This document shows positions 5,454-20,682 of a stretch of 64,000 bases of DNA, piece after piece. Position numbers and translations under genes: made by a program. The notes under the pieces are model-generated. The model was not told the DNA's origin and ran no database searches. It was given only the letters and a program-made list of their open reading frames with translations. The stretch lies in assembly GCA_965204535.1 (NCBI GenBank), contig OZ241996.1, forward strand, positions 192,001 to 256,000, written 5' to 3'. The DNA comes from a bacterium (lineage in GTDB: Bacteria > UBA8248). The stretch's first letter is position 1; each line of letters starts with the position of its first letter.

Positions 5454-6867
5454 GGTTAAGTCCTAAACTTGCTGGAAACTTTGGAGGGGTGCATCCTCGG
5501 CAGAGGCATCACAAAACCGTGCCGGTAAGCGCCGGCACCAAACCGAGGAGGCACCCCATGAAGAAGAGATTACAGGCATCGACGCACACTCGCCAAGCCC
5601 TGTCCGCCCTGATCGAAGGCCGCCTGTCGAGTCCCGATGCGCGGGCCGACCTGGTGAAGCTCGCCACGCGGCTCATCGTGGAAGAAGCGCTGGAGGCGGA
5701 GAGCCGCGACGCTCTGGGCCGGGAATACTACGAGCACGGAGCGAAGCCCGGCCAGGGCTACCGCAACGGCCATCGTGCAGGTCGTCTCAAGACGGCGGAA
5801 GGGTTCGTCGAGTTCGCGGCGCCTCAGATTGCCGGGCGCGAGGAAGCGTTCCGCTCAGCGATTAGAGACAACCTCAAGGGGCGCACCGAGGGGCTCGAGG
5901 AGTTGGCGGTGGAGCTATTGGCGCGCGGTCTCTCGGTACGGGACATCGAGGACGTCTTCAGCGACGAGAGCGGCCGTTTGCTGCTCTCTCGCACGGCGGT
6001 CTCGGAGCTCGGCGAACGGTTGTGGTCAGAATACCAGGAGTTCGCTTTGCGGGATTTGGGCGAGTACGAGGTTGTCTATCTGTTCATCGACGGGATCGCC
6101 GAGCGGATCCGCCCGGGGAGCAAGCGCGAGCCGGTGCTGGCGGCCTGGGGAATCACGGCGAACGGCGCCAAGGTGCTGCTGCACCTGATGGCGGGTTCGA
6201 AAGAAGACGCCGAAACGGTGAGCGCGTTCTTCCAGGACATGCGCACCCGCGGCCTGGGCGACCCGCTGGTGGTGGTGAGCGACGGGGCGCCGGGCATCAT
6301 CAAGGCGATCGAGACGTGCTTCCCGCGATCGGAGCGGCAGCGCTGTCTGGCGCACCGCATGCGGAACCTCGCGGCGAAGGCGCCCGAGGACCTCTGGCCG
6401 GAGTTCAGGGAGCGGGCAGCGGCGGCCTACCAGGCCCCCTCGCGCGCCATCGCCCGGGAGTTAGCCGATGGACTCGCCAGGGACTACGAGTCGAGGCTGC
6501 CGAGCGCCGTGGCTTGCTTCCGCGATGACTTCGAAGCCTGCATTGCGCACCTGCGTGCGCCGGTCAACCATCGCCGGGCCGTGCGCACCACGAACCAGCT
6601 GGAGCGTTTGTTCGTCGAGGAGCGCCGAAGGCTCAAGATCATCCCGAATGCCTTCGGTGAGAAGCCGGTGCTCAAGCTCATGTTCAGCGCCATGATCCGG
6701 GCCGCCGAAAGGTGGCGCGCGCTCAAGATTACCGGCTTCGAGCGACGCCAGATGGAAGCCCTGAGACGGGAACTGGACCAGAACTACGAGGAGGAAAACG
6801 AACTCAATCGCAGGCCCTCAGCCGATATGCGCCAAAAGAAAGTTTCCAGCAATTCTCGGACTTGACC
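5454..6867 (+). mobile_element. Complete IS256-family element
   Basis: Imperfect 29-bp TIRs (GGTTAAGTCCTAAACTTGCTGGAAACTTT / GGTCAAGTCCGAGAATTGCTGGAAACTTT); 8-bp target duplication CAAAAAAT at 5446-5453 and 6868-6875. Confidence 0.93.
5558..6865 (+). CDS. IS256-family DDE transposase
   Basis: YLFIDG, VVSDGAPG, QRCLAHRMRN and RTTNQLER motifs; GAGGAGG RBS before ATG 5558. Confidence 0.95.
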   Translation: MKKRLQASTHTRQALSALIEGRLSSPDARADLVKLATRLIVEEALEAESRDALGREYYEHGAKPGQGYRNGHRAGRLKTAEGFVEFAAPQIAGREEAFRSAIRDNLKGRTEGLEELAVELLARGLSVRDIEDVFSDESGRLLLSRTAVSELGERLWSEYQEFALRDLGEYEVVYLFIDGIAERIRPGSKREPVLAAWGITANGAKVLLHLMAGSKEDAETVSAFFQDMRTRGLGDPLVVVSDGAPGIIKAIETCFPRSERQRCLAHRMRNLAAKAPEDLWPEFRERAAAAYQAPSRAIARELADGLARDYESRLPSAVACFRDDFEACIAHLRAPVNHRRAVRTTNQLERLFVEERRRLKIIPNAFGEKPVLKLMFSAMIRAAERWRALKITGFERRQMEALRRELDQNYEEENELNRRPSADMRQKKVSSNSRT

Positions 6868-7084
6868 CAAAAAATTGTTGCTCAATCTTAAATCCTCAAC
6901 TATTGGTGCGCTCCGAGAGCATGTTCACTCACAAACTTCACGTAGTTATTTAAACGGCTTTGTATGAAAAGCAACCAGGCATCGATCAGCTATAGTTTGC
7001 TATTCTTATACATTATCAATATCCCCCAACACGCTCAGGGGACGAAAGTGTCCGTCGATCCCCTGGGGAAACTGGAGGCCGCCC

Positions 7085-7978
7085 ATGATTAAACGAATCG
7101 TCGAAATCGGAAGTCCCGCCCGTCTCTCTCTCAGCCGCAAGCAACTGAAAGTGGAACGGGAGGAATACGCCGCAGAGTCTCTCCCCGTGGAGGATCTGGG
7201 CGTCCTGATTCTGGATCACCCGGCCATCCGCCCCTCTCAAGGGTTGTTGTCCGAGTGCATGAAGAACAACGTCGCCGTCGTGATGTGCGACGAGAAGCAC
7301 CTGCCCGCCTCCGTCCTGCTCCCGCTGGACGGACACACCCTGCACAGCAAGATCGTGAAGGAACAGGCCGCCGCCACTCCCGGCAGGCTGAGCCGCCTCT
7401 GGCGGGCGGTCGTGCGCGAGAAGATTCTCGCCCAGGCCGACGCGCTCGACGCCTTCGACGAATACGGCGAGCCGCTCCGAGCCGTCGCCGGGCGCGCGGC
7501 CCGGAAAAACCCCGCCCAGGCCGAGGCCCGCGCCGCGAGAACGTACTGGCCGAGAATGTTCGGACCGGATTTCCGGCGAAACCGCGCGCTTCCGGGGGTG
7601 AACCGCCTGTTGAACTACGGCTATTCGCTCATCCGCGCGGCCACGGCGCGAGCCATCGTCGCGGCGGGCCTGCACCCCGCTTTCGGCCTGCACCATCACA
7701 ACCAGTACGACGGCTTCTGTCTGGCGGACGACCTGATGGAGCCGCTTCGCCCGCTGGTGGACCGCCGGGTGCGCCGGATGCGTGATGAGCCGGAGTTTTG
7801 GGGAGAGGAACTCGAACTGGAGAAGGAGGAGAAGCGCGAGCTTCTGGGCGTGCTGGCCGAAGAGGTCCGGTTCGGCGGAAAGACCTACCCCCTTCTCACC
7901 GCCCTGCAATACTACGCCGCGGGCGTTCGCCGCGTCCTTTGCGGGGAAGAGAAGGAGACGGAAATCCCCCGGCCATGA
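7085..7978 (+). CDS. cas1: CRISPR-associated integrase Cas1, type II
   Basis: EARAARTYW, NRLLNYGYSLIR, GLHHHN and LADDLMEPLRP motifs. Confidence 0.96.
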   Translation: MIKRIVEIGSPARLSLSRKQLKVEREEYAAESLPVEDLGVLILDHPAIRPSQGLLSECMKNNVAVVMCDEKHLPASVLLPLDGHTLHSKIVKEQAAATPGRLSRLWRAVVREKILAQADALDAFDEYGEPLRAVAGRAARKNPAQAEARAARTYWPRMFGPDFRRNRALPGVNRLLNYGYSLIRAATARAIVAAGLHPAFGLHHHNQYDGFCLADDLMEPLRPLVDRRVRRMRDEPEFWGEELELEKEEKRELLGVLAEEVRFGGKTYPLLTALQYYAAGVRRVLCGEEKETEIPRP

Positions 7979-8304
7979 GCTTCGGGAGGTGGCGCAGCAT
8001 GTGGCTCATGGTGATGTTCGATCTGCCGACGGATACGAAGGCGGCGCGCAAAGCCTACCAGGAGTTTCGCGGCTTTTTGCTCGAAGACGGCTTCACCATG
8101 CTCCAATACTCGGTGTACGCCCGGCATTGCCCGAGTTCCGAGAACGCGGAGGTGCACGAGAAGCGCATCAACGCCGCGCTTCCCCCGGACGGGGAGGTGC
8201 GGCTTTTACTCTTCACGGACAAGCAGTTCTCGCGGATGAAGATTTTTTATGGAAAAACCCGCAAGGCGACGGAAAAGGCTCCCGAGCAGATCACGCTGTT
8301 CTGA
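7975..8304 (+). CDS. cas2: CRISPR-associated Cas2
   Basis: MWLMVMFDLPT, FLLEDGFTMLQYSVYAR, TDKQF and C-terminal QITLF; ATGA overlap with the cas1 stop. Confidence 0.96.
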   Translation: MSFGRWRSMWLMVMFDLPTDTKAARKAYQEFRGFLLEDGFTMLQYSVYARHCPSSENAEVHEKRINAALPPDGEVRLLLFTDKQFSRMKIFYGKTRKATEKAPEQITLF

Positions 8305-8350
8305 CCCGTCCCGGGAGCCTTGAGCAGATCGGTTACAGCAGGTTGGAATA

Positions 8351-8468
8351 CAAAAAGCCCCCGTCCTGAAACGGGGGCCTCTGCCGGTAGTGCCCTTGGG
8401 TTACCGAGCCCGCGCGAAGGGGCGATTGCTGTGATAAGCGAATCGGCCACTCCTCGACTTGCTATGAA
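8351..8468 (-). ncRNA. tracrRNA
   Basis: The minus strand reads AGCAAGTCGAGGAGTGGCCG-bulge-CACAG (anti-repeat, about 8428-8465), followed by hairpins and terminator GCCCCCGT-TTCAGG-ACGGGGGC-TTTT; exact ends approximate. Confidence 0.88.
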
Positions 8469-8515
8469 ACGTATGCTAACACTTGGCGATTGCAAACGCA
8501 ATGGAGGACCCACTC

Positions 8516-11500
8516 TTGGAGCGTATTTTTGGATTCGACATCGGGACGACCTCGATAGGCTTCGCCGTGATTGACCACGATCCGGATGCGGCGACGGGCG
8601 AGATTAAGCGTATGGGCGTCCGCATTTTTCCCGAAGCGCGCGATCCGAAGGGCGCGCCGCTCAATCAGGAACGGCGAGCGGCGCGTATGCGCCGTCGCCA
8701 GTTGCGCCGCCGTCGCGAAAGAAGGCGTTCGCTCGGCAAATTGTTGTCCGAAGCCGGTCTACTCCCCACTTACGGATCCCCCGAATGGGACAAGGCAATG
8801 AAGTACGACCCCTACGATCTCAGAAGGCGGGCTTTCGATGGCGCGCCTATCTCCCCGCATGAGTTCGGGAGGGCGATCTACCACCTTGCCCAGCGTCGTC
8901 ACTTCAAGGGGCGGGACGTCGACGAGATTTCCGATGATACCCAGACGGAGGATCGGAAAGAGGAAAAAGCGGACGCCGATGAAAAGAAAGCCAAGGGCAA
9001 GCGCGAATCAACCATAGCAATACTGAAAGACGAGAATAAGACGCTCGGCGCGTGGCTGGCGGAGCGCGGGCCGCATGAACGCAAGCGAGACGAGCATGCA
9101 ACGCGAAAAATCGTCGAGGATGAGTTCGAGAAAATTTGGGAAAAGCAGAAGAAGCATTTGTCTGTGCTTCAGGACGAGGAATTGAGGGACTCCATCCGCG
9201 AGGCGATTTTCGCTCAACGCCCCGTGTTTTGGCGCAAAAATACGTTGGGGGAATGCCGTTTCGTCCCCGAAGCGCCCTTGTGTCCGAGGGGCGCATGGCT
9301 CTCTCAACAGAAGCGGATGCTGGAGAAGGTCAACAACCTCTCGGTGGGCGGCAGCGCCCGCTGCCTCGACGCAGAAGAACGCCGGGCGATTCTCGACAAA
9401 CTGCAAACGCAGGCGTCCATGACCTGGAGCAGAGTTCGGGGCGCGCTCAAGCCGCTTTATGAACAGCGCGGTATGCCGGGCGAGGAGAAGCGCCTCAAGT
9501 TCAATTTGGAAGACAGTGAGAAAAAGCTCATTGGCAACCCGCTCGAAAAGAAACTCGCGGACATTTTCGGTAAAGATTGGCCAGCGCATTCGCGCAAGCA
9601 GGAAATCCGCGACGCCGTGCATGACAGACTTTGGCATGCGGATTACGGGGAAACCGGCTCACAGCGCGTAGTCATTCTCCCAGCGAAAGAACGCAAGAGG
9701 AGGCGCGCAAAGGCGGCGCATGGTTTTGTGGATGATTTCGGCGTCACCGAAGCTCAGGCCGAAAAGCTCAAAGACCTCAAGCTACCCACGGGATGGGAGC
9801 CTTATTCGGTCGCGGCGTTAAAAGCATTTTTGCCCCATCTCGAAGAGGGCGTGCGGTTCGGTACGCTGGTGAGCAGTCCTGAGCCCAAATGGGAAAATTG
9901 GCGAGAAAAAACCTTTCCGCGAATGGAGCAGCCGACGGGCGAAATTCGGGATCGTTTGCCCAGTCCGGCGGATCCGGAGGAAAGGGCGCGCGTCGCTAAA
10001 TTGCGCAATCCCACGGTCGCGCGGGCGCGCAACGAATTGCGCAAGGTCGTCAACAACCTCATCGACAAGTTCGGAAAACCGGACCTGATCCGCGTGGAGT
10101 TGGCACGCGAGGTCGGCATGTCGAAGCGCCAACGCGAGGATATGTCGATCGGTATGAGGCGACAGGAAGGACGACGGAAAAAGGCGAAGGAAGCTCTCGA
10201 AGAAAGAGGGATACCCAACCCTTCGCGCGATGACGTCGAAAAATGGATGCTCTGGGAAGAGTGCGGGCATTTCTGTCCTTACACCGGAAAGGGTATCGGT
10301 TTCGAGGCCCTGTTTCACGAAAACGAATTTCAGGTCGAACACATCTGGCCGCGTTCCCGCTCTTTCGACAACAGTTTCAGAAACAAGACTCTGTGCCATA
10401 AGGACGAAAATCTCAGGAAAGGCAATCACATTCCATTTGAATATCTGAGTAGCGATGAAGAGAGTTGGGATCGGTTGGTGAAGCGACTGGAAGGAATGAA
10501 GGCGACCAAGAGCGGGGTCGGCATGTCGCCGGGCAAGGTCAGACGATTTCTCGCGACTGAGATACCGGAGGACTTCGCCGCGCGCCAACTCAACGACACC
10601 GGATACGCCGCGCGCGAGGCCGTGTCTTTCCTCAGGCAATTGTGGCCGGACGCGGGACCTGAAGCACCCATGACGGTGCAGGCCGTATCCGGCCGCGTTA
10701 CTGCGCAGCTTCGCTGGCTCTGGGGTTTGAACGACATTCTTGGCGAGAGCGGCAAGAAGACGCGATCCGATCATCGCCATCACGCGATTGACGCGCTGGC
10801 AGTCGCCTGTACGCATCTCGGCATGACGCAGAAGCTCTCTCGCTATTGGCAGGTCAGGGACTTACGGATCAAAGAAACCTCACACGCCCGAAAGCCGCGT
10901 CTGGAGCGGCCTTGGGAGACGATTCGCGCCGACGCGGAAAAGGCCGTCGCTGATATCGTCGTGTCGCATCGTGTTCGCAAGAAAATATCCGGGCCGCTGC
11001 ATTTGGGGACAATTTACGGCGATACCCGTAAAGACGCAGTTACCAAATCTGGAACCCACCGCTATTTCGTTACGCGCAAGAAGGTCGAAGAACTAAGCAA
11101 GAGTGATTTGGCGGATAAGAACGAAGACATGTGGCCGGATAAGAGAGTGCGTAAAATCGTCAAAGAGTGGGTGAACACTAATGGCGGAGACTCGAAAAAA
11201 GCATTTTCCTCCGGTTTTCCGCTATGCGGGCGGAACGGTCCTGAAATCCGCAAGGTGCGCTTACGAAAGAAACAGCAGTTGAAACTGATGGCGAAAGCCG
11301 GGACCGGCTACGCCGACCCAGGCGAGAATCACCACATGGCGATTTACCGCCTGCCCGACGGCGAGATCGATTTCGAGGTCGTTTCTTTGTTCGATGCGGC
11401 GCAGCGTCTGGCAAGACGCGAAGACATTGTGCGGCGCAAGCGCGAGGACGGTGCGTGCCTCATCATGTCGCTTTCAAAAGGCGACGCATTGCGGTTTCCT

Positions 11501-11686
11501 GACAACGACCAAGCCAAGGTGCGAATTGTCGAGAGCATTTGGGCGGCTGGCCCGGTAGTAATGGCTGACCACAACGACGCTACTGGAACGACTCGATTTC
11601 GACCTAGTCCCAATCCTATTATAAACAGCGGCGCGAAAAAAATTTCTATCGATCCCATCGGTCGCATACGTCCAGCCAAAGATTGA
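8516..11686 (+). CDS. cas9: Type II-C Cas9 (about 1056 aa), Parvibaculum-like
   Basis: RuvC-I FGFDIG, Arg-rich bridge helix, RuvC-II VELAR, HNH EHIWPRS...NKTLC...N, RuvC-III HHAIDA; TTG start after GGAGG gives MERIFGFDIGTTSIG (alternative start 8501). Confidence 0.97.
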   Translation: MERIFGFDIGTTSIGFAVIDHDPDAATGEIKRMGVRIFPEARDPKGAPLNQERRAARMRRRQLRRRRERRRSLGKLLSEAGLLPTYGSPEWDKAMKYDPYDLRRRAFDGAPISPHEFGRAIYHLAQRRHFKGRDVDEISDDTQTEDRKEEKADADEKKAKGKRESTIAILKDENKTLGAWLAERGPHERKRDEHATRKIVEDEFEKIWEKQKKHLSVLQDEELRDSIREAIFAQRPVFWRKNTLGECRFVPEAPLCPRGAWLSQQKRMLEKVNNLSVGGSARCLDAEERRAILDKLQTQASMTWSRVRGALKPLYEQRGMPGEEKRLKFNLEDSEKKLIGNPLEKKLADIFGKDWPAHSRKQEIRDAVHDRLWHADYGETGSQRVVILPAKERKRRRAKAAHGFVDDFGVTEAQAEKLKDLKLPTGWEPYSVAALKAFLPHLEEGVRFGTLVSSPEPKWENWREKTFPRMEQPTGEIRDRLPSPADPEERARVAKLRNPTVARARNELRKVVNNLIDKFGKPDLIRVELAREVGMSKRQREDMSIGMRRQEGRRKKAKEALEERGIPNPSRDDVEKWMLWEECGHFCPYTGKGIGFEALFHENEFQVEHIWPRSRSFDNSFRNKTLCHKDENLRKGNHIPFEYLSSDEESWDRLVKRLEGMKATKSGVGMSPGKVRRFLATEIPEDFAARQLNDTGYAAREAVSFLRQLWPDAGPEAPMTVQAVSGRVTAQLRWLWGLNDILGESGKKTRSDHRHHAIDALAVACTHLGMTQKLSRYWQVRDLRIKETSHARKPRLERPWETIRADAEKAVADIVVSHRVRKKISGPLHLGTIYGDTRKDAVTKSGTHRYFVTRKKVEELSKSDLADKNEDMWPDKRVRKIVKEWVNTNGGDSKKAFSSGFPLCGRNGPEIRKVRLRKKQQLKLMAKAGTGYADPGENHHMAIYRLPDGEIDFEVVSLFDAAQRLARREDIVRRKREDGACLIMSLSKGDALRFPDNDQAKVRIVESIWAAGPVVMADHNDATGTTRFRPSPNPIINSGAKKISIDPIGRIRPAKD

Positions 11687-11728
11687 ACCAGTTATAAGAT
11701 ATCCGCGAGATTGTAAGGAAATGGTTTC

Positions 11729-11772
11729 TTCCGCCCGATCGGCTGGATTTTTTTGTCGCCGATCAGGCGGAA
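11729..11772. terminator. Hairpin between cas9 and the array (terminator or leader structure)
   Basis: TTCCGCCCGATCGGC ... GCCGATCAGGCGGAA inverted repeat. Confidence 0.55.
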
Positions 11773-11804
11773 ATGGCCTTTTTTCAGTACCTTACGAAAA
11801 AGCG

Positions 11805-13290
11805 ATTGTAGCAAGTCGAGGGGTGGCCGCAAACCACAGTCTGCGAGCTTGCCGATTGATTCCGCGCATTATTGTAGCAAGTCGAGGGGTGGCCGCAAAC
11901 CACAGTCTACCATCACTCCGGGCTTTGCTACAAAAGATTGTAGCAAGTCGAGGGGTGGCCGCAAACCACAGTAAGATCGTGAAAAAGCATCGTGAAAACT
12001 CGATTGTAGCAAGTCGAGGGGTGGCCGCAAACCACAGTTTAGGACGGGAAGCGTAGACAACCCGATCCATTGTAGCAAGTCGAGGGGTGGCCGCAAACCA
12101 CAGTGAATGAAGTTGCGCCTTCAAGCCGTCACCGATTGTAGCAAGTCGAGGGGTGGCCGCAAACCACAGTGCTCCTCGTCTTGTGGACCGCAAAGAGCCC
12201 ATTGTAGCAAGTCGAGGGGTGGCCGCAAACCACAGTACGCGGCATCGAGGCTCACCTGCACCCGGTATTGTAGCAAGTCGAGGGGTGGCCGCAAACCACA
12301 GTCCAGCGTGGTGCTTCCTCATGCTCGCATCGATTGTAGCAAGTCGAGGGGTGGCCGCAAACCACAGTTGGTGCAGGTTCTTCACGCTCACGCGTCCGAT
12401 TGTAGCAAGTCGAGGGGTGGCCGCAAACCACAGTTAGAATGCGTGCAGATCCACCTGCTTCTTGATTGTAGCAAGTCGAGGGGTGGCCGCAAACCACAGT
12501 GTGTCTCGAAGGATGTGGACGACAGGAATATTGTAGCAAGTCGAGGGGTGGCCGCAAACCACAGTAAGAGTCAGGGGATTACGGAACTCAAGCAAATTGT
12601 AGCAAGTCGAGGGGTGGCCGCAAACCACAGTCATGGGCCTCTGTTGGTTATTCTTGGCCTGATTGTAGCAAGTCGAGGGGTGGCCGCAAACCACAGTCGT
12701 TTCTTCACCGAATCACTGCCGAAAATATTGTAGCAAGTCGAGGGGTGGCCGCAAACCACAGTCCTGATCATCGAGGAGCGCTACGCCCACCGATTGTAGC
12801 AAGTCGAGGGGTGGCCGCAAACCACAGTGCTTCATTTACAGGAGCAACAACCGGATTTATTGTAGCAAGTCGAGGGGTGGCCACAAACCACAGTGAAGGA
12901 GGCGCGATGTCATGGCCAGACGAAATTGTAGCAAGTCGAGGGGTGGCCGCAAACCACAGTATCTAAAGTATCGGCATCTACATCAAGATCATTGTAGCAA
13001 GTCGAGGGGTGGCCGCAAACCACAGTTACTAGGCGTTTTCGTATAGAATGCCTTTAATTGTAGCAAGTCGAGGGGTGGCCGCAAACCACAGTGAGCACCG
13101 CAGCGTAAGCCCGAGCTTCGCGATTGTAGCAAGTCGAGGGGTGGCCGCAAACCACAGTTCATAGGTGGATTCGCCTATAATGCCTCTAATTGTAGCAAGT
13201 CGAGGGGTGGCCGCAAACCACAGTAGCTAGACGTTTTCGCGTATGCTCTTCTCAATTGTAGCAATTCAAGGGGTGGCAGCAAACCACTCG
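11805..13290 (-). CRISPR. CRISPR array, 23 repeats of 36 bp and 22 spacers of 29-30 bp
   Basis: Plus-strand repeat ATTGTAGCAAGTCGAGGGGTGGCCGCAAACCACAGT with about 66-bp period; one variant at 12859; degenerate last repeat 13255-13290; minus orientation from tracrRNA complementarity and terminal TGCTACAAT. Confidence 0.98.
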
Positions 13291-13854
13291 TTGCGAAAGG
13301 CTGGATTCATAAAGGGAATCGTCATATCTTTGTGCATGGTGGCGCATCTCTTATTTACTGAATGATCGGGCTTCTGACAACCCTATTTCAGCAGGAATGC
13401 GCCGTCTTCTTCAATTCAGCCCACACACAAGATCTGAGGGTAACTCTGCATAAAGTTTATGCAGGACAATGACTTATTGCTCTCATAATCATTGTCAAGT
13501 GAAGTGGAACGTAGCCGGGGAATGGTCTGTATCTGTGGATAGTTCAAGTGTGTGCGATTCATCGGCAACTTTTTTCCGAGTCCTAAGTCAGGTTGCGATC
13601 GGGTGATGCTGGGCATGAATCTGTAAATTGAGCGGTGTGGTCAGTTCCCAGATGTGTCGGTACGGAAGCTGAAGGTGAATAAGTTGCTGGATCGGACTTG
13701 CGCCTAAGAGCACCCAACGGTTTCCTCGTTGCGGGGTAGACTTGCTGGAAGCCACACAACCGAAGGCACCAGTAGTCGCAGGCGGCTCGGCGGTTCTTGT
13801 GCCAGGTCCGAACTGGTCGGGGACACGAGCAAATCAATGCTTCTGATTTGGCAC

Positions 13855-13884
13855 TTGACACTGTAGTGTGAAGTGCACTACATT
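13855..13884 (+). promoter_or_regulatory. TA operon promoter with overlapping operator palindrome
   Basis: TTGACA (13855-13860), TACATT (13879-13884) and TGTAGTG-N7-CACTACA (13862-13882). Confidence 0.7.
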
Positions 13885-13905
13885 AGCCTTGTGAAAGGGG
13901 CGGCC

Positions 13906-14214
13906 ATGTTAGACTTTGACATATCATCAAGTTCTTCTACCAAACACACTAGAACCACGCAGGTGCGTCACGATGATCGACTAGCGACCCTGATTGAGCG
14001 TGCTGCACTGTCGCTAGCTGTGCATAAATCGGTCTTCCTGCGCGCAGTGATTGAGCGCGAGGCAATACATGTGCTTGAAGCGCAATCCCGACATGTTCTG
14101 ACACCGGAGGACGCCGAGCAGTTCGCTGCGGCCCTTGATTCCCCCCCCGCTCTGACTCCACGCGCTCGGGAGGCGGCACGAAACTATCGCGCGCGCGTGG
14201 TTCATGCCGACTGA
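13906..14214 (+). CDS. DUF1778 (TacA/AtaR-like) antitoxin
   Basis: LIERAAL...LTPEDAEQFAAALDSPP pattern; overlaps the downstream GNAT gene. Confidence 0.88.
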   Translation: MLDFDISSSSSTKHTRTTQVRHDDRLATLIERAALSLAVHKSVFLRAVIEREAIHVLEAQSRHVLTPEDAEQFAAALDSPPALTPRAREAARNYRARVVHAD

Positions 14215-14749
14215 AACACCTGCCCTTAGAATCGAATCTTTTGATCCAGCACGGCATGACCGCGTCGGTTTCGATTGCGGTGTTGATCGCCTGAACAACT
14301 ACCTCAAGCTGAGCGCAAAGAAGCAACAGAAAGACGACATGACCCGCGTCTATGTTGTTGTCGAAGAGGGGAGCACGCGCATCCTCGGCTACCATGCGAT
14401 CAACGTGGGCAAGATGAACGTGGACGAGCTCGAGCATCGACCGCGCGGGACACCGAAGCATGGAGAGATCCCGGTGCTGTTCCTGGGACAGGTCGCAGTG
14501 GACAAGCCGTCGCAAGATACAGGTCTTGGCGGCATCCTCATGTACCATGTCTTCGAAAAAGCATGCAAGATTTCCGAAATGGCCGGTTGCCATGCAATCA
14601 TCCTTGATGTCATCTCGGATGGAGGGGAAGAAGCACTTGCGCGTCGTAGAGCGTGGTACGAAAACTTTGGTTTCACTTCCTTCTCCAGCAATCCTGCACG
14701 CATGTTCCTTGTGATGAAACAGGTCCGCGCGGTGACTCGGGCAAAGTGA
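14204..14749 (+). CDS. GNAT-family toxin (TacT/AtaT-like acetyltransferase)
   Basis: HDRVGFDCGVDRLNNYLK, IPVLFLGQVAVD...QDTGLG and WYENFGF motifs. Confidence 0.9.
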   Translation: MPTETPALRIESFDPARHDRVGFDCGVDRLNNYLKLSAKKQQKDDMTRVYVVVEEGSTRILGYHAINVGKMNVDELEHRPRGTPKHGEIPVLFLGQVAVDKPSQDTGLGGILMYHVFEKACKISEMAGCHAIILDVISDGGEEALARRRAWYENFGFTSFSSNPARMFLVMKQVRAVTRAK

Positions 14750-18154: not shown

Positions 18155-19042
18155 ATGAAGACAACCGAGGAAGCTACCAAGGGCCTTTTTGTACTGGCTG
18201 GACGGGTGCCATTGAATATTGCGCCTGAGAAAGCCGAAGAACTAGTAAAGGAGGTGTTCGGCAACGATGAATGGGAACTGCGACCAAGCCGGACTAAAGC
18301 CAATTTCTACGCTGTAGTCGAAGAGCGGGCAGTATATCTGTCGTTCGCTGGGTTAGCGAGTCTGTGGTGTCTAACATTCACTGCATATTGTGTAATGGAT
18401 ATTGCCTCTCGAAGTACACGTGACAATGACTTTCAGGGGTCTCAAATCGATATCAGCAATCAGTGGAACGAACTGAAGCTTGATGCTTACCTGAACTATG
18501 CCCGCCGCCTTTTCCGCGCTGATGAGCAGTGGCCGGAAGGACTCAGAGCGCCAGTAAGTGATGCAGAATTTGACTCTGTTGATGGGCGAATCAACAATCT
18601 TTTTTATGGCTCTCTAAGTTGGATTCTGCTTCACGAAATTGCTCATATTTATCACGGAGATTTGCGGTTACTGCCGGCTTCGATGAAAGTTGTGCAAGAG
18701 TTTCGAGCGGATGAATTCGCTACGAATTGGATTTTAGATAATGCTGGTTCTGGCCGTCAGCGAGAGTTTCGAGCACTTGCGATCACAGTTGCCCATGCTT
18801 GGCTCTTGTTGCATGAGGCAACGATAGGCCGAGGCTATGACCATCCGTTGGCGTTACAACGATTTTTAGGAGCTGTAAATCAGTTGGAATTGAAAAATCG
18901 AAGCACCGCGCTGGAAAATGCCGCCTATATGCTAAAGGCGATCTTCGATCCCGAATCAGTGATGCCGACGGCGTTGTTGGCGCATGAAGCATTCGAGTGG
19001 GTGAGTAAACGGATTGCCGAGCAGTTCAGAGAGACACATTAG
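18155..19042 (+). CDS. lit: Lit-family (peptidase U49) phage-exclusion protease
   Basis: WILLHEIAHI HExxH motif, then EFRADEFAT and DHP. Confidence 0.8.
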   Translation: MKTTEEATKGLFVLAGRVPLNIAPEKAEELVKEVFGNDEWELRPSRTKANFYAVVEERAVYLSFAGLASLWCLTFTAYCVMDIASRSTRDNDFQGSQIDISNQWNELKLDAYLNYARRLFRADEQWPEGLRAPVSDAEFDSVDGRINNLFYGSLSWILLHEIAHIYHGDLRLLPASMKVVQEFRADEFATNWILDNAGSGRQREFRALAITVAHAWLLLHEATIGRGYDHPLALQRFLGAVNQLELKNRSTALENAAYMLKAIFDPESVMPTALLAHEAFEWVSKRIAEQFRETH

Positions 19043-19764: not shown

Positions 19765-20682
19765 ATGACCGGAGAGCTTCCCTTCGACACTTCCGATCTG
19801 GAATCGTCGGCGATTTCCCCCTTCAGGGAGCTGGGCGCCTACGAGGCGCTCTGGAACGAGGAGGGGATGTCTTTCCGGAAACTCGCGGAAAGGCGCCGCC
19901 GGCGGCCCGGTTCCATGCTGTCCGATTTCGTGTCGAGGTCGGACGCCCGCGACTTCGCCCACCGCGTTCGCGACATGCTGTCCGAGGCCGGAATCGAGGG
20001 GTTCGGCATACGCGTGCACGGCGCGGGAGAATACCCCCTCAAGCTCAGGGATGCCGCGAACCCCGTGGAGTTGCTCTATTACCGGGGCTGGTGGGACCTG
20101 GTTCATACGCGCTGCGTGGCGGTGGTCGGCGCGAGGAAAGCCTCACCGGAAGGGATCGCGCGCACGCGCCGTCTGGTCGGGAAGCTCGTCGCCGACGATT
20201 TCACGGTTGTTTCGGGACTGGCCGGAGGGGTCGATGCGGCCGCGCACGCCGCGGCGATCGACTCGGGCGGCAGGACGATAGGGGTGATGGGAACGCCGAT
20301 ATCCCGGGCCTACCCGCAAGCGAATGCGGAACTCCAGGAGCGGATCGCCGCCGGGCATCTGCTGATCAGCCAGGTTCCCGTCTGGCGTCATTCCCGGCAG
20401 GGCCCGAAGAGAAACAGGCTTTTCTTCCCGGAGCGCAACATCACGATGTCGGCCCTCACCGAGGCGACCGTCATCGTCGAGGCCGGCGAGACGTCGGGGA
20501 CGCTGATCCAGGCGCGCGCCGCGCTGCAACAGGGGCGGAAGCTGTTCATTCTCGACAACTGCTTCCAGAATCCGAAACTCGCGTGGCCCGCGAAATTCGC
20601 CGGGAAAGGCGCCGTCCGGGTCCGGGAATACAGCGACATCGGGCGGCATCTTGACGACGCTCAGACTCTCCAGGATCGATGA
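19765..20682 (+). CDS. DprA/Smf (SLOG) protein, defence-associated type
   Basis: VAVVGARKAS, VVSGLAGGVDAAAH, FPERNITMS and EAGETSGTLIQA motifs. Confidence 0.9.
   Translation: MTGELPFDTSDLESSAISPFRELGAYEALWNEEGMSFRKLAERRRRRPGSMLSDFVSRSDARDFAHRVRDMLSEAGIEGFGIRVHGAGEYPLKLRDAANPVELLYYRGWWDLVHTRCVAVVGARKASPEGIARTRRLVGKLVADDFTVVSGLAGGVDAAAHAAAIDSGGRTIGVMGTPISRAYPQANAELQERIAAGHLLISQVPVWRHSRQGPKRNRLFFPERNITMSALTEATVIVEAGETSGTLIQARAALQQGRKLFILDNCFQNPKLAWPAKFAGKGAVRVREYSDIGRHLDDAQTLQDR

Follow-up and report, generated by a model that had tools for sequence, protein, structure and literature searches.

Old spacers of a type II-C CRISPR array resemble repressor-controlled promoters of temperate phages

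Within a stretch of bacterial DNA of 64,000 nucleotides (the window) we identified a type II-C CRISPR-Cas locus, the components of which are arranged as follows:

5489-6865: IS256
7085-7978, plus strand: Cas1 (NMENI type; TIGR03639), 96.6% identical to the Cas1 of the genome's second II-C system
7975-8304, plus strand: Cas2 (PF09827)
8352-8466, minus strand: predicted tracrRNA, with an anti-repeat at 8444-8464 (20/21 match) followed by stem-loops and a U-run (z -3.3)
8516-11686, plus strand: Cas9 (II-C; TIGR01865), 61% identical to the Cas9 of Parvibaculum sp. P0152, RuvC and HNH catalytic motifs present
11805-13290, minus strand: CRISPR array of 23 repeats (36 nt) and 22 spacers, the 3′ end of the repeat reading TACAAT on the minus strand
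13255-13290: degenerate repeat of the array

All three profile matches are above their cut-offs, and the RuvC and HNH motifs of the window Cas9 presumably have their usual roles. The type II-C assignment follows from the presence of cas9, cas1 and cas2, with neither csn2 nor cas4 between them and the array and no room for either within 7085-11805, and from a predicted tracrRNA with its anti-repeat, 36-nt repeats, spacers of ~30 nt and a -10 box at the repeat end. Both the Cas9 and the repeat are close to the Parvibaculum lavamentivorans type, as judged against Parvibaculum sp. P0152 and not the P. lavamentivorans DS-1 protein, and the 30-nt spacers are likewise shared. However the repeat differs from that of the Parvibaculum sp. 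array at 9 of 36 positions, Cas9 here abuts the array, and cas1-cas2 derive from another II-C system. The window Cas1 is only ~40% identical to the Cas1 of Parvibaculum-like loci, in which cas1-cas2 sit between cas9 and the array. The locus is a hybrid at 6963-8321, where the cas1-cas2 DNA shares 92.7% identity with the corresponding module in the second II-C system of the genome, and where a piece upstream of cas1-cas2 (6963-7014) resembles the anti-repeat of that system. The second system itself (G000:C2:2097880-2103070) has a different repeat, present four times, and a Cas9 31-35% identical to that of the window. A 99.6% copy of C1:200713-215427, array included, is found at G000:C2:1-14714 with its cas9 frameshifted near residue 630, and is probably an assembly overlap. 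Defence-island neighbours include a TacA-like antitoxin with a GNAT partner (13873-14749), a Lit / peptidase U49 protein (18155-19042) and a DprA-like protein (19765-20682). Cluster mates of two window proteins are named Nitrospinota, positions 11600-11840 are matched, but for a single substitution and a single gap, by a contig from a run recorded as sponge metagenome, and several of the related Cas9 loci are listed under the names of sponge symbionts.

Because the anti-repeat at 8444-8464 lies on the minus strand, the crRNAs and the tracrRNA are minus-strand, as had been supposed in the original prediction, and the PAM is therefore expected upstream of each plus-strand spacer with plus-strand position 1 as the PAM-proximal base. 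By the II-C rule, which we take to apply here, the degenerate repeat at 13255 marks the old end of the array. Contigs of three sequencing runs join 11804 to 13189 across one repeat, keeping spacer 22 alone, and this junction may be an assembly collapse or a short variant of the array. Just past the array an element of 50-60 bp (13385-13446) recurs in several other contigs in all four sequencing runs, with an inverted copy on the same contig in two of them.

The oldest four spacers, three of which form the subject of this analysis (spacers 19, 21 and 22, the trio), are as follows, the boxes being given in the plus-strand reading and the scores being those against a matrix of phage promoter-operators described below:

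13027-13056, minus strand: spacer 19, palindrome 13030-13045, -10-like TAGAAT 13044-13049, 19.1 bits
13093-13122, minus strand: spacer 20, between trio members 19 and 21/22 and unrelated to the trio, 70% GC
13159-13188, minus strand: spacer 21, palindrome 13162-13177, TATAAT 13176-13181, 20.0 bits
13225-13254, minus strand: spacer 22 (oldest), weaker palindrome 13228-13243, TATGCT 13242-13247, 8.0 bits

We confirmed that the trio are mutually similar in one ungapped register with their sequences as quoted in the original prediction, the identities being 21/30 (19 vs 21), 17/30 (19 vs 22) and 14/30 (21 vs 22) against a mean of 7.7 (sd 2.8) over all 231 spacer pairs of the array. The lowest of these is not exceptional alone, since pairs 5/8 and 10/20 reach 15 and 14. 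Jointly the three spacers agree at 12 of 30 columns (4, 5, 6, 9, 12, 13, 14, 15, 18, 19, 23 and 30), while letter shuffles gave a best pair of at least 21 in 1 of 2000 trials and 11 three-way columns (over the first 29 positions) in 0 of 300. The shared columns form an imperfect 6-4-6 palindrome at positions 4-19, TAG(G/A)(C/T)G-N4-CG..TA, the final TA of which is the start of the -10-like box. The earlier reading of the trio as sigma70 promoters stands as regards this box, which lies in register in each spacer, but was incomplete in overlooking the palindrome, and a promoter combined with a repressor operator describes the trio better. The -35 box is absent from the window and is a predicted feature of the unseen targets.

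No reading frame is open in all three spacers (table 11), which rules out coding homology as the cause of their likeness. By eye we also set aside integron attC sites, REP elements, dif sites and IncP operators as identities of the motif. The Aca1 operator IR2 of phage JBD30 (PMC8633003) has the same outer arms, TAGGC/GCCTA, and also lies in a mobile-element promoter, but has seven bases between the arms where the trio have six and a core half-site GGCAC where the trio have GGCG; it was ruled out as the identity of the motif on these two counts.

Read in the PAM slot, a -35 box of TTGACA becomes TGTCAA, and we predict that the PAM of this Cas9 is about NNNCAA. The PAM reported for P. lavamentivorans is NNNCAT (PMC6859307), in agreement with the form given in the original prediction, or NNNMAT (PMC8990532); in contrast to both, the predicted PAM ends in CAA, a mismatch at position 6. 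The PAM-binding end of Cas9 varies among relatives, and the C-terminal loop of the window Cas9 resembles that of Parvibaculum sp. P0152.

Intergenic targets flanked by TTG had been named as the support to look for in spacer searches of viral, plasmid and host DNA. Our searches of IMG/VR, cultured phages, plasmids and 43 related genomes uncovered no true protospacer, and the numerically best match (24/30; L016) falls in an open frame, as read by eye, and lacks a TTG. The whole array returned two chance-level records from cultured phages and one from plasmids, and spacers 19, 21 and 22 searched singly against phages, or spacer 21 against plasmids, gave E values of 2-8 only. Five IMG/VR patterns built on the trio yielded nothing real: one gave a single coding match, one 8 matches of at most 23/30, one 11 matches of which 7 came from one capsid-region family, one none, and the remaining pattern 65 matches of at most 20/30 with TTGAC in 4, which is chance level. 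Among 22 genus genomes searched with two mismatches allowed there was one weak match only; BLAST against the 43 relatives found no protospacer, the 1233 spacers of related arrays gave no usable protospacer in the DNA searched, and four sequencing runs provided neither cover over most of the array (11856-13135) nor a protospacer piece.

At the level of the motif family the outcome was different. We scanned IMG/VR with the palindrome alone (TAGGCG-NN-TT-CGCCTA, no TTG in the query), which matched at least 123 stretches, and examined the 200 flanks of 100 distinct sites with full flanks among the matches listed. TTGAC stands exactly 9 nt before the palindrome, which is the PAM slot, in 15 of these 200 flanks against 0.23 expected, and at any other offset at most 2 times, whereas a control (permuted) palindrome has TTGAC in the slot in 0 of 162 flanks, again among the matches listed. 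A TTG six bases upstream of the spacer start, as originally predicted, is thus borne out in viral DNA for the family of sites. TTG alone is a weaker signal (18 at the predicted offset vs 14 and 12 at two others, among the matches listed) and only TTGAC is sharp. With the TT centre found in the spacers, TTG lies on the far side in 12 of 104 contexts and on the PAM side in 6 of 104; we favour a PAM-side -35 box because the spacers have no far-side GTCAA and all carry T at position 23.

Sixteen viral loci, chosen for TTG, were inspected for context. Four of the 12 neighbouring proteins scanned are repressors combining HTH_3 and Peptidase_S24 domains and five more have small HTH domains, Cro-like proteins among them, while the named homologues come from Mesorhizobium, Phyllobacteriaceae and Agrobacterium. 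Of 33 loci found by repressor, the 8 closest CI relatives each have 2-5 palindromes around cI, although four of these are the query proteins, two lie on contigs already matched and only two are new; among the 25 more distant loci 24 have no palindrome and one a single site. The promoter-operator pattern matched 70 times in 14 phage records vs 6 times for a reversed control, and each of five complete phage records contains 4-8 TTG-operator promoters, in keeping with the earlier suggestion of repeated phage promoters of this layout; many further operators have no TTG on either side. A promoter-operator matrix built from 27 phage sites, partly circular and drawn from sites that are related to each other and hence not independent, gives the trio the in-register scores listed above and the array's other 19 spacers at most -0.4 bits; the best of 1212 spacers from related arrays reaches -1.0 in register and 7.5 in any register. 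Temperate phages of ~64 kb (L560-L579; G059-G062, G065) have 4-8 operator-bearing promoters, several of them far from cI, forming a dispersed CI regulon with the sharp half-site (T/A)A(G/T)GCG. One viral locus (L506), which is among the 65 matches of the IMG/VR scan otherwise at chance level, has TTGCAT and an operator with the right half of spacer 19 (CGTATA) directly before Cro-like and replication-like genes (labels by eye).

The trio share with this Mesorhizobium-type CI clade the 6-4-6 layout, the AT-rich centre, the ending in the -10 TA and the offset from TTGAC, but depart from its half-site consensus, (T/A)A(G/T)GCG with invariant G4. Across 57 phage operators G4 is present in 114 of 114 half-sites, C5 in 112 of 114, and position 3 is always G or T, whereas four of the six trio half-sites (TATACG, TAGGTG, TAGACG and TACGCG) break an invariant or nearly invariant position. 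The flanks do not match either, the phage operator sites match the spacers at only 19-22/30, and no cognate CI is in hand. The trio would therefore work like the CI operators of this clade without being members of it, and on the half-sites reflect either a related repressor or mutated operators.

In lambda and P22 the CI operators sit in the PL, PR and PRM promoters, and the trio would likewise place a palindrome between -35 and -10; the nearest operators of this design found here are those of the Mesorhizobium-type CI clade. The likeliest reading of the motif is that of a sigma70 promoter from temperate phages with a repressor operator inside it. We consider it somewhat better than even (a probability of roughly 0.55) that the trio are the immune memory of three different repressor-controlled promoters from one or more lambda-like temperate phages, with the promoter -35 box serving as the Cas9 PAM. 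The real targets would then resemble the viral promoter-operators described here, and Cas9 would cut at promoter-operators as ordinary interference, with one guide per promoter.

It had been suggested to look for the same pattern in arrays with this repeat. From 79 genomic and 4 metagenomic Cas9 loci we collected 63 related arrays with 1233 spacers, 1212 of them distinct, among which no trio-like spacer was found; TAnnnT at position 18 occurs in 1 of 1212, and -10 motifs show no excess at this offset. The trio pattern thus belongs to a single array and is no trait of this group of Cas9 proteins. Of 24672 within-array pairs in the related arrays, 3 are near-duplicates that share one register. 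Three related arrays (L128, L132 and L164) have near-duplicate pairs of 25-26/30 and a fourth (L153) an inverted near-duplicate pair.

We estimated the chance of such a trio under a model in which all 22 spacers are assumed to come from phage like the five examined. With a PAM of TTG only, operator promoters make up 0.15-0.33% of sites and the probability of at least 3 of 22 spacers falling on them is 6e-6 to 5e-5; with TTGAC, they make up 2.2-3.6% of sites in the five phage genomes and this probability is 0.012-0.042. Three operator-aimed spacers therefore need an extra filter, unless the PAM is long. A longer PAM (e.g. NGTCAA) could give the same targets with no selection, as -35 boxes would then be a few percent of sites and the trio a moderately lucky draw, and near-duplicates at one register also occur in related arrays. 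Such a draw nevertheless assumes that the whole array derives from such phage, leaves three of the four oldest spacers at P ~1e-4 even with a long PAM, and runs against the three specified bases of the PAMs reported in the clade, and we hold it to be unlikely. A distinctly smaller chance attaches to the idea, put forward originally, that spacers aimed at promoters persist since a phage escaping by mutation of PAM or seed would impair its own transcription. The PAM slot is the -35 box, seed positions 4-9 are an operator half-site, and escape from type II systems runs through PAM and seed SNPs (PMC13575424), but the argument is weak as seed positions 1-3, the three PAM-adjacent bases, vary freely among natural promoters of the family, offering a cheap escape, and the pattern is absent from the 1212 related spacers. 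A PAM other than the -35 box, with the Parvibaculum NNNMAT kept and the register set by another conserved flank of an operator palindrome, is rather improbable: the listed NNNMAT, the P0152-like C-terminal loop and the many operators lacking TTG on both sides all speak for it, yet all three spacers have the T at position 23 that is needed for a -10 box placed 17 nt from the PAM slot, and a reverse -35 at positions 23-28 is seen in no member of the trio.

Promoter-operators of a non-phage mobile element (a plasmid, ICE, transposon or acr-aca-like operon) would explain why the trio depart from the CI-clade consensus, and find parallels in the outer arms of the Aca1 operator and in a multi-copy transposon with TTGACT-N3-TAGG..CGCCTA in two genomes with related Cas9. 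Against this, identity between the transposon sites and the spacers is no more than 10-15/30 and the AT-rich centre is missing from those sites, the Aca1 site exceeds the motif by one base, and the plasmid searches, with the whole array and with spacer 21 alone, gave matches at chance level only; we regard such a source as quite unlikely. The transposon (L550-L558; G073, G089) is an element of 2.3-2.5 kb, present in 12 and ~20 copies, that carries a transposase labelled by eye as IS66-like and a passenger labelled likewise as adenine-methyltransferase-like, and its TTGACT and TAGG..CGCCTA palindrome stand just before the passenger gene. Duplication of one spacer followed by decay might be suspected from the position of the three as neighbours at the old end, but differences at 30-53% of positions separate the spacers from one another, with no change at all in the repeats between them, and what the three have kept in common is a symmetric motif, so that this origin is scarcely credible. 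Hardly more probable is a natural CRISPRi mode, in which partly paired guides would bring Cas9 to promoters of the host or of the cas genes. Guides that repress host or cas promoters through Cas9 or Cascade, from non-canonical RNAs, are known in tracr-L, scaRNA and CreR; the trio resemble these in being aimed at promoter DNA next to a PAM, and differ in that they belong to an ordinary array and lack a host target. Pairing over 12 nt suffices for repression by wild-type Cas9 (PMC3753641), but in the host genome, which is 95.7% complete, whole spacers match at best 20-21/30, seeds next to TTG or ATG extend to 9 nt at most, and no PAM-flanked pairing of at least ~12 nt with a host promoter was found, other PAMs being covered through exact 10- and 12-nt seeds. 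Repression of the host by the trio, which had also been suggested, is accordingly not supported; autoregulation of the cas genes is ruled out, since the cas intergenic regions reach at most 9/12 seed matches, and the catalytic motifs of Cas9 are intact.

Returning to the memory of repressor-controlled phage promoters, the concentration of such spacers at the old end calls for comment. In S. thermophilus the spacers of type II systems track PAM abundance and show no bias toward promoters (PMC13575424). Against that background, three of the four oldest spacers falling on promoter-operators would point to a filter of a kind absent from the papers our searches returned. Cross-reaction among guides is a weak explanation, as spacers 19 and 21 share only 7 of their first 12 bases. 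A filter acting in a lysogen would be strong enough to account for the trio, and could work as follows: spacers against a resident prophage would kill the cell, with exceptions surviving where the target is covered by bound repressor or where the guide is weakened by its own hairpin, for example spacer 21, for which a fold of the guide onto its seed is predicted at -6.2 kcal/mol (z only -1.5). Operator-aimed spacers would be the survivors, firing when the repressor comes off. If the -35 box is the PAM, the guide target would be the repressor footprint, and CI would hide the resident prophage from Cas9, which would fire on induced, heteroimmune or operator-mutant (virulent) phage. On this view virulent operator mutants of the past would have left their fossil record in the half-site breaks. 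We offer the lysogen filter, through repressor cover or guide hairpin, as a tentative and on balance doubtful account of the pile-up; that the array has been filtered toward prophage operators and so represents conditional prophage tolerance by a DNA-cutting type II system is a shade more doubtful.

Conditional tolerance of prophages is described for type III-A systems, in which immunity is silent toward the repressed prophage and active in the lytic state (PMC5754349). The proposed lysogen filter would share both properties, but type III-A tolerance arises from transcription-dependent targeting, whereas here it would come from a repressor covering the Cas9 target. In a search of the literature mostly outside subscription papers we found no paper on point concerning operator-aimed spacers, this motif, -35 boxes as PAMs or repressor shielding of Cas9 targets, and a filter toward promoter-operators is not described in the literature found. 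Should the filter be repressor shielding, prophages and a DNA-cutting CRISPR system could live together in one cell with no need of anti-CRISPRs; should the PAM just be a long one, the array is ordinary and the trio a lucky draw. Two further results are the prediction that a compact Cas9 uses NNNCAA as its PAM and an operator motif that characterises a clade of temperate phages not in culture.

In the present genome we found no prophage of this operator kind, no CI homologue with four queries and no TTG-operator promoter of the phage kind, and in 51 genomes from its class the promoter-operator pattern is no commoner than its control (23 matches vs 35). The host does use TTGACA-17-TAnnnT promoters, e.g. 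upstream of the 16S gene. One perfect operator-type palindrome, with no TTG in the PAM slot, is present in the host genome (G000:C2:2516591-2516606), at 100 bp from the start of a transposase labelled by eye as IS1595-like.
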